Part shown: positions 100-8,464 of the stretch, piece by piece
Layout: each line of letters starts with the position of its first letter
How positions within the stretch are numbered: the first letter of the stretch is position 1
Virus record (IMG/VR): IMGVR_UViG_2667527591_000013
Direction: 5' to 3' (one strand)
From: a virus
Lineage: Duplodnaviria; Heunggongvirae; Uroviricota; Caudoviricetes
Length of the DNA: 8,464 bases
Notes under the pieces: generated by a model
The model's input: only the letters and a program-made list of their open reading frames with translations
What the model was told of the DNA's origin: nothing
The model's database searches: none
Position numbers and translations under genes: made by a program

Positions 100-315
100 A
101 TGTACCAGATGGAAAAAATCACAACAGGTGTGTCATACACCACGTCAGCGGTGGGGACGGGCTACTGGTTCCTGCAGCTGCTGGACAGGGTTTCCCCGTC
201 TCAGTGGGCGGCAATAGGCGTACTGGGAAGTCTGCTGTTTGGGCTGCTGACATATCTGACTAACCTGTATTTCAAAATCAGAGAGGACCGTCGTAAGGCG
301 GCGCGGGGAGAGTAA
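100..315 (+). CDS. Class II holin (pinholin), phage 21 S / EssD-like
   Basis: 71-aa ORF starting ATG at 100 with a G-rich SD-like stretch (GGAGACGGGG) upstream. Translation [71 protein letters not shown] has two short hydrophobic segments and a charged C-terminus, closely resembling phage 21 S and E. coli prophage Ess holins as I recall them. Met1 and Met4 form a dual-start motif. The stop lies 4 nt before the next ORF. Confidence 0.85.
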
Positions 316-319
316 AGCG

Positions 320-664
320 ATGAAGAAAAAATACGAACTGGTTGTTAAAGGGATAAATAATTACCCGAATAAGATTACTGTTACTGTGGCACTGGAAATT
401 GGTGGGTATCCGTCACTGTTGTTGCCAGATGTGGCGATTAGTCTTGACCGTACTGAAGATGCCACGCTGGAGTTTTACGAAGCTGAGGCGAAAAAGCAGG
501 CGAAGCAGTTTTTCATGGATGTTGCTGCCGGGTTATGTGAAGGGGATGGTCCGTTGCCGGAAAAGCGCCCCGTAATTTTAGAGGCGCAGGATGTGTTGAT
601 AACCTACAGAGGAAAACTACCGGGAATAATTACTGGTTCTCTGAAGACTCCACCGCTGGCCTGA
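320..664 (+). CDS. Hypothetical protein in lysis cassette, between holin and endolysin (possibly YdfR/DUF1327-like)
   Basis: 114-aa ORF with GGGGAGAG SD-like sequence 8-9 nt upstream of the ATG at 320, tightly coupled to the holin stop. Its position between holin and lysozyme matches the essQ-ydfR-rrrQ arrangement in E. coli lambdoid prophages. The family name is from positional memory only, not a verified match. Confidence 0.6.
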   Translation: MKKKYELVVKGINNYPNKITVTVALEIGGYPSLLLPDVAISLDRTEDATLEFYEAEAKKQAKQFFMDVAAGLCEGDGPLPEKRPVILEAQDVLITYRGKLPGIITGSLKTPPLA

Positions 665-714
665 AGACTTAACATATCCAGGGATTTGAAATCGATAAAC
701 CCTGATAAATATCC

Positions 715-1752
715 ATGAACACCAAAATCAAATACGGCCTGTCGGCTGCCGTTCTGGCGCTGATTGCCGCAGGTGCGCCTGCGCCTGAAATCCTCGACCA
801 GTTTCTGGATGAAAAGGAAGGTAACCACACCACGGCATACCGTGATGGCGCGGGTATCTGGACCATCTGCCGCGGTGCCATCCTGGTGGATAGTAAACCT
901 GTCGTTCCGGGCATGAAGTTGTCGAAGGAAAAATGCGACCAGGTTAACGCCATTGAGCGTGATAAAGCGCTGGCGTGGGTGGAGAAAAACATCAGAGTGC
1001 CGCTGACCGAACCCCAGAAAGCGGGGATCGCGTCATTCTGTCCGTACAACATTGGTCCCGGTAAGTGTTTCCCGTCGACGTTTTACAGACGAATTAATGC
1101 TGGTGATCGCAGGGGAGCATGCGAGGCGATTCGCTGGTGGATTAAGGACGGTGAGCGGTATTTTTTCTGTAATGAGCTGAATGAAAAAGGGGAGCCGGTC
1201 ACCTGGCAGGGGCGGCAATATCAGGCGTACCCGATTGAGGGGAGTGGCTTTGAGATGAACGGAAAGGGCAGCAGTGCCCGCCCGTCGCTGACGGTGTCCA
1301 ATCTTTTCGGCCTTGTCACCGGAATGGCGGAGGATTTGCAGAGCCTGGTGGGGGCCACGGTGGTCCGCCGCCGGGTGTATGCCCGTTTTCTGGATGCGGT
1401 GAATTTCGTTGCGGGCAATCCGGAAGCGGACCCGGAGCAGGAGCTGAGTGACCGCTGGGTGGTGGAGCAGATGTCGCAGCTGACAGCCATGACGGCCTCG
1501 TTTGTGCTGGCCACACCGACCGAGACGGACGGGGCGCTGTTTCCCGGTCGTATCATGCTGGCGAACACCTGTATGTGGACCTACCGCTCTGATGAGTGTG
1601 GTTACACGGGCGGGGCTGTGGCGGATGAGTTCGATAAACCCACCACGGATATCCGTAAGGACAGATGCAGCAAGTGCATGCGCGGGTGTGAACTGCGCAG
1701 GAATGTCGGCAATTTTGGCGGTTTCCTTTCCATTAATAAACTTTCGCAGTAA
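715..1752 (+). CDS. Chimeric ORF: N-terminal SAR-type GH24 phage lysozyme domain (about nt 715-1152) fused in frame to tail-tip protein L (about nt 1153-1752)
   Basis: Residues 1-146 (MNTKIKYGLSAAVLALIAAGAPAP...GACEAIRWWIKDG) have a Gly/Ala-rich SAR-like N-terminal segment and a T4-lysozyme-type E-x8-D-x5-T catalytic spacing (E35, D44, T50), resembling RrrD/RrrQ/R21 endolysins. Residues 147-345 (ERYFFCNELNEKGEPVTWQGRQYQ...NVGNFGGFLSINKLSQ) align nearly colinearly with lambda L from about its residue 33 to its C-terminus, including the C-terminal cysteines. The lysozyme part lacks the last 20 or so residues of typical endolysins. Confidence 0.8.
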   Translation: MNTKIKYGLSAAVLALIAAGAPAPEILDQFLDEKEGNHTTAYRDGAGIWTICRGAILVDSKPVVPGMKLSKEKCDQVNAIERDKALAWVEKNIRVPLTEPQKAGIASFCPYNIGPGKCFPSTFYRRINAGDRRGACEAIRWWIKDGERYFFCNELNEKGEPVTWQGRQYQAYPIEGSGFEMNGKGSSARPSLTVSNLFGLVTGMAEDLQSLVGATVVRRRVYARFLDAVNFVAGNPEADPEQELSDRWVVEQMSQLTAMTASFVLATPTETDGALFPGRIMLANTCMWTYRSDECGYTGGAVADEFDKPTTDIRKDRCSKCMRGCELRRNVGNFGGFLSINKLSQ

Positions 1753-1757
1753 ATCCC

Positions 1758-2501
1758 ATGACAGAGACAGAATCAGCGATTCTGGCGCATGCCCGGCGGT
1801 GTGCGCCTGCGGAGTCGTGCGGCTTCGTGATAAGCACGCCGGAGGGGGAGCGGTATATCCCTTGTGTGAATATTTCCGCAGAGCCGGAGGCGTATTTTCG
1901 TATCGCACCGGAAGACTGGCTGCGGGCAGAGATGCAGGGGGAGATTGTGGCACTGGTCCACAGTCATCCCGGTGGACTGCCCTGGCTGAGCGAGGCCGAC
2001 CGGCGGCTGCAGATAAAAAGCGCACTGCCCTGGTGGCTGGTCAGCCGGGGTGACATTCACAAATTCCGCTGCGTTCCGCACCTGACGGGACGGCGCTTTG
2101 CGCACGGGGTGACGGACTGTTACACGCTGTTCCGGGATGCATACCATCTGGCAGGCATTGATATGCCGGATTTTCATCGCGGGGATGACTGGTGGTGCAA
2201 CGGTCAGAACCTTTACCTGGACAATATGGAGGCAACGGGCTTTTACCGGGTGCCCCTGTCCTCTGCACTGCCGGGCGATATCCTGCTGTGCTGCTTCGGC
2301 GCATCGGTGGCTAATCATGCCGCCATTTACTGCGGCAACGGTGAGCTGCTTCACCATCTGCCTGAACAGCTGAGTAAACGGGAGAGGTATTCCGAAAAAT
2401 GGCAACGACGAACGCATTCTGTCTGGCGTCACCGCCACTGGCACGCATCTGCCTTCACGGGGATTTACAACGATTTGGCCGCCGCCTCAGCCTGTATGTG
2501 A
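1758..2501 (+). CDS. K: Tail tip assembly protein K (JAMM/MPN plus NlpC/P60 domains)
   Basis: 247-aa ORF starting 5 nt after the L stop. It contains the JAMM motif HSHPGGLPWLSEAD (H-x-H-x7-S-x2-D) and an NlpC/P60-like Cys (GVTDCYTLF) with a downstream His (NHAAIY). It matches lambda K from memory (EIVALVHSHPGGLPWLSEADRRLQ, HKFRCVPHLTGRRF). The true start may be internal. It overlaps I by 103 nt in another frame, as lambda K and I overlap. Confidence 0.9.
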   Translation: MTETESAILAHARRCAPAESCGFVISTPEGERYIPCVNISAEPEAYFRIAPEDWLRAEMQGEIVALVHSHPGGLPWLSEADRRLQIKSALPWWLVSRGDIHKFRCVPHLTGRRFAHGVTDCYTLFRDAYHLAGIDMPDFHRGDDWWCNGQNLYLDNMEATGFYRVPLSSALPGDILLCCFGASVANHAAIYCGNGELLHHLPEQLSKRERYSEKWQRRTHSVWRHRHWHASAFTGIYNDLAAASACM

Positions 2502-3079: not shown

Positions 3080-3085
3080 AAAGAA

Positions 3086-3180
3086 TAAAAAAATCCCGCA
3101 GTGATCGCGGAGCTGCGGGGACAGACAAAGATTAGAGTTAAGGAGTTGTTTTTGTTACTCGGGCAAAAAAACACTAACGC
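3086..3180 (-). ncRNA. Candidate small RNA (about 95 nt), antisense, in the I-J intergenic insert
   Basis: It lies between the candidate promoter and the minus-strand terminator. There is no start codon with an SD on the minus strand in this interval. The predicted RNA contains a second internal hairpin (GTTTTT...AAAAAC) and a CUCCUU stretch. Ends are approximate. Confidence 0.3.
3095..3119 (-). terminator. Intrinsic terminator, minus-strand oriented, immediately after the I stop codon
   Basis: Perfect 7-bp stem CCCGCAG(3095-3101)/CTGCGGG(3113-3119) with an 11-nt loop. On the minus strand the stem is followed by ATTTTTTTATTCTTT (complement of + 3080-3094). On the + strand the downstream sequence is not T-rich. 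Confidence 0.6.
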
Positions 3181-3186
3181 AGCGAA

Positions 3187-3214
3187 ATTATACGCGCCAC
3201 AGTCAGTTTGTGAA
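3187..3214 (-). promoter_or_regulatory. Candidate sigma70 promoter on minus strand (-35 TTCACA, 16-bp spacer, -10 TATAAT)
   Basis: The minus strand reads TTCACA (complement of + 3209-3214), a 16-nt spacer, then consensus TATAAT (complement of + 3187-3192). It points leftward toward the terminator at 3095-3119. Confidence 0.4.
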
Positions 3215-3286
3215 AATGTGAAGATATTCAGAATTTTTATGCCATTACCGGTTTTTACCAACAGGATTATCGGTGGACATGAAAGA

Positions 3287-3322
3287 AAACCCCGGTATCT
3301 GCTGATACCGGGGTTTCTCTTT
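3287..3322. terminator. Bidirectional hairpin terminator in the I-J intergenic insert
   Basis: Perfect 12-bp inverted repeat AAACCCCGGTAT(3287-3298)/ATACCGGGGTTT(3305-3316) with a 6-nt loop CTGCTG. The + strand continues TTTCTCTTT; the minus strand continues TTTTCTTTC. Confidence 0.6.
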
Positions 3323-3419
3323 AGCATGGCAGAAATGTGTTTCATGCTTTTCGGGCGAAGGATATCCGACTTCTGTACGGAATGGCAAGTGGCGGTTAAT
3401 TTATTCAGGGGAAGGCTGT

Positions 3420-6950: not shown

Positions 6951-7271
6951 TCCCGGACGATCGTGATTGCCGGAAGGAGACAAAAACCGCACAGTATGCG
7001 CGGGTGCCTTTGGCTGATGGCCGGAGGGAACACCTGAAAGCCTGATGTGAAAAGGCCCCGAGTCAACTTCAATGTTAACCCGAGGCCCTGATCCGTCTAT
7101 CTTAAGCAAGTGGCAGGTTAGCGCCTCTCCGTAATAAGGAGCAAGTGCTGTGTCGCAAAAACCACCGTGATTTGTATCACTGTAGTGCTCATTATCTGGA
7201 TCACCCACCGTTCACTGTGTGAATTCCGGTTCCGGATAGCACCTTTTTAATCCTGTAAACCACGATTTTTA

Positions 7272-7319: not shown

Positions 7320-8464
7320 ATGACAGTCAGAATATCGGGCGTGCTGAAGGACGGCACCGGGAAGCCGGTACCGGGATGCACCATTGAACTGAAAGCCCTG
7401 CGCACCACGGAGACAGTGATTGTCACCACGGTGGCGCAGGGGCAGCCGGGGGAAACCGGCAGTTACAGTTTTGATGTGGAGCCGGGGTGGTACCGGGTGA
7501 CGCTGAACACGGAAGGGTACGCCCCGTCGTATGTGGGTGACATTCTGGTGAAGGCGGATTCTGAGCCGGGAACGCTGAATAAATTTCTGATGGAACAGGA
7601 TGAGGCGCAGTATTACCCGAAAGCGCTTGCAGAGCTGGAAGCGGTGGCAGCGGAAATCCTGAAGCGTGCTGAAGCGTCGGCGGCGAGTGCAGAGGAAGCG
7701 AAGAAACGGGCAGAGAATGCCCGGGGACCGGCGGGCGAGAAGGGGGACACAGGTCCACAGGGTGCCACAGGGGCAAAGGGACCAGCCGGGGCAACGGGGG
7801 CGGTCGGACCAAAAGGTGAGCCGGGGCCAAAGGGAGAACGGGGAGAAACAGGTCCACAGGGACCGAAGGGCGATAAAGGTGACCCGGGCGGACCGCCGGG
7901 GCCGAAAGGTGACACCGGCCCACGTGGAGAGGCCGGACCACCCGGACCACAGGGTCCGGCAGGGCAAACCGGCCCGAAAGGGGATAAAGGTGAACCCGGC
8001 GCAACAGGTCCGGCAGGTCCCGCAGGCCCTCGGGGAGAAACCGGCCCCGCAGGTCCTGCGGGTCCCGCAGGCAGTGTCGCCAGTGTTCCGGATGCCAGCA
8101 CATCACAGAAAGGTGTTGTACAGCTGAGCAGCGATACCAACAGCGATGATGAAACAAAAGCGGCAACCCCAAAGGCTGTGAAAGCGGTAATGGCAGAAGT
8201 GCAGGCAGCAAAAACGAAGGCAGAAGAGGCAGCAACCCGGGCAGCAGTCCCCGGACCGAAGGGGGACAGGGGGGAACCTGGCGCACCTGGTGCAGTGGGG
8301 CCAGCAGGCCCACGGGGACCGGCTGGTGCAGCTGGTCCCAAAGGTGATGCAGGCCCGGCAGGCCCCGCAGGAAAGGATGGTACCGCCGGAGCGGAAGGTA
8401 AGGCAGGTCCGGCAGGGCCACGAGGTGAAAGGGGACCAGCGGGGGCACAGGGTGTTCCGGGGCC
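7320..8464 (+). CDS. Side tail fiber protein (Stf-like) with collagen-like Gly-X-Y repeats; 5' partial, runs off the window end
   Basis: ATG at 7320 with GGGGA SD 6 nt upstream. The open frame reaches the window end without a stop, so it is absent from the supplied ORF track. The N-terminus [26 protein letters not shown] parallels lambda Stf ([17 protein letters not shown]...). The conserved motif [30 protein letters not shown] is present, flanked by two Gly-X-Y blocks. Confidence 0.85.
7725..8072 (+). repeat. Collagen-like Gly-X-Y triplet repeat block 1 within the stf-like gene
   Basis: About 37 consecutive G-X-Y triplets ([19 protein letters not shown]...[10 protein letters not shown]) with a single one-residue interruption at [10 protein letters not shown]. 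The DNA shows a 9-bp periodicity of GGN-CCN-NNN. Confidence 0.85.
8253..8464 (+). repeat. Collagen-like Gly-X-Y triplet repeat block 2 within the stf-like gene (continues past window end)
   Basis: [70 protein letters not shown], uninterrupted to the window end. Confidence 0.85.

Follow-up and report, generated by a model that had tools for sequence, protein, structure and literature searches.

An in-frame lysozyme–L chimera as a probable deletion scar in a lambda-like Escherichia prophage

The closest described relatives of the gene considered here belong to two separate systems, phage lysis and the phage tail tip. The gene is a 345-residue open reading frame (ORF), found on a stretch of 8,464 nucleotides of viral DNA (IMG/VR record IMGVR_UViG_2667527591_000013, Caudoviricetes) that was analysed as a whole and is referred to below as the window. 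The first relative is the phage 21-type lysis cassette, represented by pinholin S21, the signal-anchor-release (SAR) endolysin R21 (PDB 3HDE/3HDF) and E. coli RrrD (4ZPU). Here too a class II holin of 71 residues lies upstream, the N-terminus of the gene product is weakly hydrophobic and rich in Gly and Ala, and E35, D44 and T50 stand at the R21 positions; in contrast to that cassette, the last 31 of 177 residues are exchanged for 200 residues of the tail-tip protein L, and Rz and Rz1 are deleted. The second relative is lambda gpL (PDB 8IYK, 8K35, 8XCG). Residues 32–232 of gpL can be aligned, the four [4Fe-4S] cysteines are kept and the genes K, I and J follow, whereas the HDI domain has lost its first 31 residues, neither M nor H lies upstream, and the L part is preceded by an export signal and a lysozyme fragment.

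Three further systems bear on how such a chimera could arise. It resembles the scars of cryptic lambdoid prophages and the recombination scored by the Spi- assay of lambda, in that an internal deletion would have removed lysis, packaging and structural genes across about nine bases of imperfect homology, and such scars are frequent. This kind of object is well known, and the junction itself is a new instance of it, not previously described as far as our searches show; because the deletion is in frame, the gene is annotated as one two-domain protein. It also recalls the control of RecBCD by the octamer Chi (GCTGGTGG): a correctly oriented Chi ends 8 bases before the crossover, and independent junctions pile up 3′ of Chi. 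The canonical outcome at Chi is, however, RecA-mediated homologous repair, whereas the join here is non-homologous and its dependence on RecBCD is suggested by position. Finally, the virion-associated peptidoglycan hydrolases (tape-measure and tail-tip lysins) similarly combine a muralytic domain and a tail-tip protein in one polypeptide. Those proteins are conserved in functional phages and sit inside complete tail modules, neither of which is true of the chimera, and lambda-like tips have a single cell-wall hydrolase-like domain (NlpC/P60), which is part of K.

We conclude that the 345-residue ORF is very probably the in-frame scar of a single deletion of about 15.5 kb in a lambda-like Escherichia prophage.

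The chimeric gene and its junction

The ORF begins with ATG and runs without interruption from 715 to 1752 on the plus strand. Pfam places Phage_lysozyme (PF00959) on residues 33–147 (profile positions 2–112 of 125; 76.2 bits against a cut-off of 22.3) and Phage_tail_L (PF05100) on residues 146–343 (profile positions 5–206 of 206; 305.9 bits, cut-off 25). An earlier reading of this DNA, made from the letters alone and called here the sequence-only reading, had predicted nearly the same limits, about 25–146 and 147–345. It had described a single 345-residue ORF opening with a GH24 phage lysozyme that has a SAR-like N-terminus, intact E/D/T spacing and no C-terminal tail, and continuing with L lacking about 32 N-terminal residues. 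This description stands, and L is indeed nearly complete, except that the exact number of missing L residues is 31. The catalytic triad (Glu, eight residues, Asp, five residues, Thr) is read from the translation as E35/D44/T50, and residues 30–148 align in register with residues 30–144 of R21 (3hde_A). Residues 7–24 (YGLSAAVLALIAAGAPAP) are weakly hydrophobic, with a mean hydropathy of 1.3–1.8 and with Ala, Gly or Ser at 10 of the 18 positions, and would be consistent with a SAR segment.

Both domains are truncated. The intact lysozyme parent has 177 residues, within the range of 173–182 seen for the family across Enterobacteriaceae; 146 of them are kept here and the last 31 are gone. This leaves the catalytic domain incomplete: profile positions 113–125 of PF00959 are missing, and in the PDB alignments the solved lysozyme homologues run 18–31 residues past the aligned part. 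On the other side, residues 145–345 align to residues 32–232 of lambda gpL (8iyk_L, E 7e-112), and the absent residues 1–31 belong to the HDI domain, an N-terminal β-sandwich that forms a ring stacking on the gpM ring (domain limits from PMC10721106). The cysteines C173, C182, C205 and C212, which hold the [4Fe-4S] cluster of lambda gpL (PMC10721106), are kept at C286, C295, C318 and C325, that is, at the lambda numbers plus 113. The chimera is probably without function as a unit, and its product would be a truncated lysozyme, membrane-tethered or periplasmic, carrying a misplaced fragment of L.

The origin of the two halves was traced by a megablast search of the window against 5,426 complete E. 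coli genomes, in which window sequence has a median of three matching places per genome. Positions 1–1153 match ordinary lysis cassettes, the best being that of NZ_AP045820 at 99.3% identity, and more than 1,800 records cover this segment. From 1145 onward the window matches ordinary L-K-I-J modules, at 96.7% for the best of the complete genomes. The parent genes for lysozyme and L stand separately in thousands of genomes. In a three-way alignment the homology switches inside CGGTG (1149–1153), which is exactly common to both parents. By short-homology illegitimate recombination the deletion fused codon 146 of the lysozyme to codon 32 of L and took out all that lay between them. The sequence-only reading had put the switch at about nt 1147–1155 and had proposed a BLASTN search of the junction, which finds the intact genes apart, the lysozyme homology ending at 1153 and that of L starting at 1145. 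Its suggestion of microhomology-mediated joining, drawn from a plausible Gly-Gly in both parents, holds; the overlap is CGGTG (five exact bases), or eight of nine bases over 1145–1153. In E. coli, short-homology illegitimate recombination sets out from double-strand breaks that have been resected, with homologies of about nine bases (PMC3375238). The match of eight of nine bases fits this process.

NZ_AP045820 carries an intact prophage in which the two segments are colinear, with 15,458 bp between them. This interval contains 19 annotated genes, namely Rz followed by two small genes, the two terminase subunits, W, the portal and protease genes, D, E, FI, FII, Z, U, V, G, T, H and M. Phage PhiR12_2 has the same full gene order. 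In the window Rz/Rz1, terminase, head genes and tail shaft genes (including M, H and V) are absent, as the sequence-only reading had remarked, and in intact relatives they are present between the breakpoints. One of the two explanations that it had offered without choosing between them, a deletion scar of roughly 15 kb in a cryptic prophage that is in frame by chance, is borne out on all counts examined and agrees well with the 15,458 bp measured in the intact relative. About one-third of deletions between co-oriented genes fall in frame, and the in-frame state of the chimera therefore carries no statistical weight; of the nine lysozyme::X junctions described below, where X is the partner gene, some are in frame and others are not. 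An Rfam search of the window found nothing relevant to the junction.

The exact 345-residue protein occurs on three contigs from three NCBI draft assemblies (GCA_000944435.1, GCA_001373195.1 and GCA_000936715.1), and the window is one of these contigs in its entirety. Elsewhere the junction was searched for with negative results: it occurs in none of the 5,426 complete E. coli genomes, none of 50,697 phage records covers at least 80% of the chimeric ORF, the junction 38-mer was not found in species-representative genomes or JGI metagenome contigs, and in the protein search PF00959 and PF05100 are combined in no other cluster among the matches listed. The three contigs are identical in DNA over window positions 236–1756, and their flanks differ by 1.1–1.4%. 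The differences lie in clustered blocks, namely in the holin (54–235), in K (1757–2369, in one contig) and in the 3′ part of J (from about 4750). The block in K begins precisely at the boundary between the genes L and K, and it contains an indel of 5 bases. These flanking differences reflect either later mosaic exchange with other prophages or paralogous copies mixed during assembly, and we read the three contigs as a single deletion event inherited by related strains.

Scars of the same kind were found in other prophages. In CEA601S (locus L001, NZ_CP166713, 13566–13873) an independent deletion in a prophage of the same gene order joins a fragment of Rz to the last 48 or so codons of L, and both pieces are annotated as pseudogenes. 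For two fusions of other genes to L, contigs of 200 kb and 4.85 Mb confirmed an internal deletion of the prophage.

Breakpoints on the lysozyme and L sides

The Chi site within the R-W-W codons of the lysozyme part, which precedes CGGTG at 1149–1153, is the only one in the window. RecBCD travelling leftward out of the deleted, cos-containing side would meet it in the orientation that the enzyme recognises, and the four parental lysozyme genes checked all contain the same Chi. In the intact reference (locus L008, NZ_AP045820 535000–567400) there are only three Chi sites in 32 kb, at 30749, 30796 and 31198 on the minus strand, all of them inside the lysis cassette and within about 450 bp. One lies in the lysozyme gene and corresponds to window 1133–1140, two are at the start of Rz, and all three face the cos side. 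No Chi is present in lambda 1–19000.

We surveyed other junctions in this gene using the lysozyme part alone as query; every match of unusual length was examined and simple frameshifts were set aside. This left eight other lysozyme::X junctions, and contigs were fetched for seven of them. Counted from the last base of Chi, the join to Rz1 is at −1, that to Rz at +3, one to an unknown partner (L017) at +5, that to T at +12, the lysozyme::L join of the window at +9 to +13, and one to another unknown partner (L018) at about +18. Two events (L019 and L020) fall at −22, and P0139, known from protein evidence only, at about +54. The clustered events have differing partners (T, Rz, Rz1, unknown) and differing microhomologies, and their lysozyme alleles are only 84–97% identical to the reference lysozyme. 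The join to T, in an allele of 86% identity, is within one base of the window junction. Six of the nine junctions thus lie within a 20-base stretch near Chi. A post-hoc binomial test puts the probability at about 1e-4 to 3e-4, according to the range over which junctions are taken to be detectable.

RecBCD stops degrading the 3′-ended strand at Chi or a few bases 3′ of it. The pile-up of junctions just 3′ of Chi matches this behaviour, and we therefore infer that resection halted at Chi set the left end of the deletion, a proposal that we somewhat favour. The proximity of the junction to Chi and the recurrence of the breakpoint in other prophages do not appear in the sequence-only reading and are new points.

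On the L side, junctions of X::L chimeras were established by direct reading of the proteins and by blastn of their contigs, while tblastn on lambda over-extended across the joins. The proteins (P0062–P0088), many of which form singleton clusters in the protein search, have terminase, portal, capsid E, T, M, G, V, H and Nu1 as left partners. In 14 in-frame chimeras L starts at codons 2–4 in eight, at codons 25–26 in four, at codon 18 in one and at codon 32 in the window. The first hot spot, at codons 2–4, contains the palindrome GGATATCC (lambda 13433–13442); at the second, at codons 25–26, L starts at AAATCGACC (lambda 13502). The junction loci examined were L010:6182–6191 and L011:6505–6506. 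The E::L junction uses TATCCG (9 of 10 matches) within the palindrome, and the Nu1::L junction has at most one shared base. No Chi occurs in the lambda-type loci that carry X::L chimeras, and by eye there is no Chi-like sequence beside the L-side junctions.

Two candidate causes of the clustering at codons 2–4 and 25–26 were considered and rejected. One was CRISPR self-targeting at the first hot spot, in which type I-E Cas3 would degrade in one direction from a protospacer that follows the ATG of L. A repeat-spacer-repeat query against the 5,426 complete genomes, covering a single spacer register and a single CRISPR type, detected no array of this sort. The other was a resemblance of L bases 68–80 to the cosN overhang (…CGACCT), which is too weak to use.

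Proposed mechanism and alternatives

The events that we envisage start from a prophage with the ancestral order holin, YdfR, SAR-type lysozyme, Rz/Rz1, cos, terminase, head, tail shaft, M, L, K, I, J. A double-strand end would have formed in the late region, either by an in-situ terminase cut at cos or by the collapse of a replication fork. RecBCD entering there would degrade leftward through Rz and, on reaching the Chi in the lysozyme gene, would stop degrading the 3′-ended strand. The 3′ end, about 9–13 bases past Chi, could then pair with AGGgCGGTG at the start of L and be sealed. With the spanin gone and the endolysin damaged, the remnant could not be expected to lyse efficiently. It would neither lyse the cell in this way nor build particles, and a deletion of this kind is one that a lysogen might survive and keep.

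The sequence-only reading had offered, as its second possibility, a tail-tip protein in its own right that bears a peptidoglycan-hydrolase domain. Such a protein would be a bifunctional L whose hydrolase helps the tail through the cell wall. Tail-associated lysins do exist in other phages; moreover both Pfam domains score well above threshold, the E/D/T residues and the four Fe–S cysteines are intact, and K, I and J are intact ORFs downstream. We nevertheless give this reading almost no credence. The architecture was found in none of the phage records or complete E. coli genomes searched, and each side is 96–99% identical to a separate ordinary gene, with an abrupt switch at an overlap of 5–9 bases. 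Both domains are short by 31 residues, and the missing part of L lies in the ring-forming HDI domain. Upstream stand a holin and YdfR in place of H and M. The locus lacks M, H, V, U, Z, G/T, the head genes and terminase and can therefore produce neither a tail nor a particle. The N-terminal signal-anchor would in addition be expected to export the L part, whereas tails and the Fe–S cluster would assemble in the cytoplasm. It is also very unlikely that the junction exists in no cell and is a chimera of assembly or library preparation, despite the short contig (8,464 bp) in an assembly of more than 2,500 contigs, the multi-copy nature of prophage sequence, flank differences that could reflect mixing of paralogous prophages, and obvious artefacts of these genes in protein databases in the form of internal tandem duplications. 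An assembly error is improbable because the parents share only 5–9 bases at the join, far below any assembler k-mer, and we take the junction to be real because it was recovered identically, with 1.5 kb of identical DNA, in three separate assemblies. There are no Ns in the window, and analogous deletions are found on contigs of 13 kb to 4.85 Mb. A further reading accepts the scar and attributes it to illegitimate recombination between two lambdoid prophages, with a larger chromosomal deletion or rearrangement. Several considerations weigh against a purely internal deletion and in favour of this one. The reference NZ_AP045820, which fits the left side of the window best, matches the right side at only 93.6%, where others reach 96–99%; E. 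coli often holds several such prophages, as the median number of matching places indicates; and a rearranged locus in strain SRCC 1675, described below, has the look of an inter-prophage event. The window is moreover the whole of an 8.4-kb contig from a fragmented draft assembly, with the prophage ends and the rest of the genome outside view, so that an origin of both halves in one prophage is presumed. However, lambdoid prophages are mosaic, so that unequal identity on the two sides is expected and the contrast between 99.3% and 93.6% is uninformative. The gene order and orientation are exactly those that a simple internal deletion predicts, and several analogous scars on long contigs are plainly internal deletions. 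We consider the inter-prophage reading unlikely.

The alternative that we take most seriously concerns only the left end. The scar would be real, but made by random microhomology joining or replication slippage, with Chi coincidental and the clustering due to sampling. A single Chi in 8.4 kb is close to chance, with 0.59 expected and at least one present in 91 of 200 shuffles. Of the nine junctions three lie outside the zone of 0–20 bases 3′ of Chi, those of L019 and L020 being 22 bases 5′ of it and that of P0139 54 bases 3′, and the left end of the independent CEA601S deletion is about 120 bases from the nearest Chi. Since the lambda-type X::L loci contain none, Chi is not required for such deletions. 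The survey itself calls for caution: the 20-base window of the binomial test was chosen after the data were seen, which makes the test post hoc, the contigs supporting L017 and L018 are shorter than 800 bp, and the ranked protein list detects junctions only in roughly the last 50 codons of the lysozyme gene. In wild-type cells RecBCD together with Chi normally loads RecA and feeds homologous repair, and a Chi-ended tail that enters a microhomology join would thus be an exception to this rule. Efficient processing by RecBCD has indeed been described as steering away from illegitimate recombination, which the enzyme is generally held to limit (PMC3375238). Against coincidence, six junctions with differing partners and in alleles of 84–97% identity fall at −1 to +18 of one octamer, two of them within one base of each other. 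Their microhomologies differ between events, so that one shared repeat cannot explain the clustering, and the orientation of Chi is the one needed by an enzyme coming from the deleted side. Coincidence is thus a real possibility, towards which we do not lean, and halting of RecBCD at Chi is the reading that we carry forward.

On a wider scale, prophage decay in E. coli may be channelled and not random. In this widespread family of lambdoid prophages, one Chi in the endolysin gene and two at the start of Rz would, facing cos, stop RecBCD that comes from a break in the late region. They would create a hot spot, tens of bases wide, for deletions by which lysis, packaging and structural genes are lost, with the hot spots at the 5′ end of L on the other side; the chimera would be one such event. 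We put this forward tentatively, with somewhat more doubt than confidence. If a systematic census confirms it, the pattern would provide a testable mechanism by which lysogens disarm lambdoid prophages, namely RecBCD resection from cos or a broken fork, a halt at Chi and a microhomology join. It would also explain recurrent E. coli remnants that consist of a holin with a truncated lysozyme, and of L-K-I-J with tail fibres. The pattern of breakpoints is of more use than the chimera: independent deletions that inactivate prophages stop no more than about 20 bases from a Chi of the right orientation in the endolysin gene, and many others stop at two points near the start of L. The chimera serves mainly as a warning, since an ORF of two clean domains, its catalytic residues intact, is here very probably an accidental scar. 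Domain searches would label it a lysozyme-bearing tail-tip protein, and it should be treated as a pseudogene.

Neighbouring genes and other decayed prophages

The features of the window are listed in Table 1. In the reference genomes the holin is annotated as a class II holin and K as a C40 family peptidase.

Table 1. Positions of the genes and junction features in the window
Feature	Position	Strand	Remarks
Class II (phage 21 S-type) holin, 71 residues	100..315	+	PF04971, E 9e-33; first gene of the kept lysis cassette
YdfR/DUF1327 gene	320..664	+	PF07041, E 2.4e-45; between holin and lysozyme, as in intact relatives
Chimeric ORF	715..1752	+	Lysozyme codons 1–146 in frame with L codons 32–232
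Lysozyme-derived part	715..1153	+	99.3% identity to the intact lysis cassette of NZ_AP045820 up to base 1153
Chi site	1133..1140	+	GCTGGTGG; R-W-W codons of lysozyme; only Chi in the window
Crossover zone	1145..1153	+	AGGxCGGTG; parents match at 8/9; ends of BLAST matches overlap here
L-derived part	1154..1752	+	Corresponds to lambda gpL residues 32–232; 98.8% DNA identity to L of phage PhiR12_2
Tail-tip assembly gene K	1758..2501	+	JAB/MPN plus NlpC/P60 domains; intact ORF
Tail assembly gene I, 193 residues	2498..3079	+	Pfam
Tip attachment/host-specificity gene J, 1176 residues	3420..6950	+	Full domain series (Pfam)
Side tail-fibre gene	7320..8464	+	Collagen-like Gly-X-Y repeats; runs off the contig end

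The gap between I and J (window 3080–3419, 340 bp) has a lower GC content of 45%. It measures about 345 bp in the reference prophages as well, and about 60 bp in lambda. On its minus strand there are two putative small-RNA-like units, neither of which has an Rfam match. In the first, a promoter close to consensus, TTCACA-16-TATAAT (3214 to 3187), would precede a hairpin and T-run (3111 to 3095); in the second, a weaker promoter (3388 to 3359) would precede a hairpin with a 14-bp stem (3317 to 3286).

Between J and the tail-fibre gene, where reference prophages carry lom, positions 7002–7161 (plus strand) give a weak full-length match to the Rfam family sok/CssrC (RF01794; 32.5 bits against a gathering threshold of 59, E 2e-4). 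Just beyond it a short ORF at 7167–7250 (plus strand) encodes a product (…VICITVVLIIWITHRSLCEFRFRIAPF) resembling Hok toxins. Together the stretch 7002–7250 may be a degenerate element of the hok/sok type.

Several other arrangements of these genes were seen in the course of the searches. Proteins P0016–P0022, P0085 and P0090 outscored normal L or lysozyme and were suspected of being further fusions. On inspection they contain parts of L or of the lysozyme in internal tandem duplication. Their contigs are short, and the collapse of prophage repeats during assembly is the probable source of these artefacts. A converse arrangement to that of the chimera is seen in SRCC 1675: there (locus L004, NZ_CP015023, 2910–3903), H, M and the first 135 codons of L are followed after 55 bp by a complete lysozyme gene. 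This locus lies near the end of the record, and the arrangement may stem from a rearrangement between prophages or from an assembly join. On a metagenome contig of 2 kb the partner fused to L is a LacI-family repressor, which we take to be chromosomal.

Within the tail-tip module, P0024 is a fusion of L to I from which K is deleted, and P0051 and P0084 combine L with the domains of K (JAB and NlpC/P60) in one protein, presumably as L–K fusions. The module evidently decays by many routes. Lastly, locus L019 (8060–9688, minus strand) belongs to another decayed prophage of this family, with a chimera of lysozyme and a head-tail protein. Just downstream of its tail-fibre genes, a 542-residue gene combines reverse-transcriptase and TIR domains and has the look of a defence-type moron.

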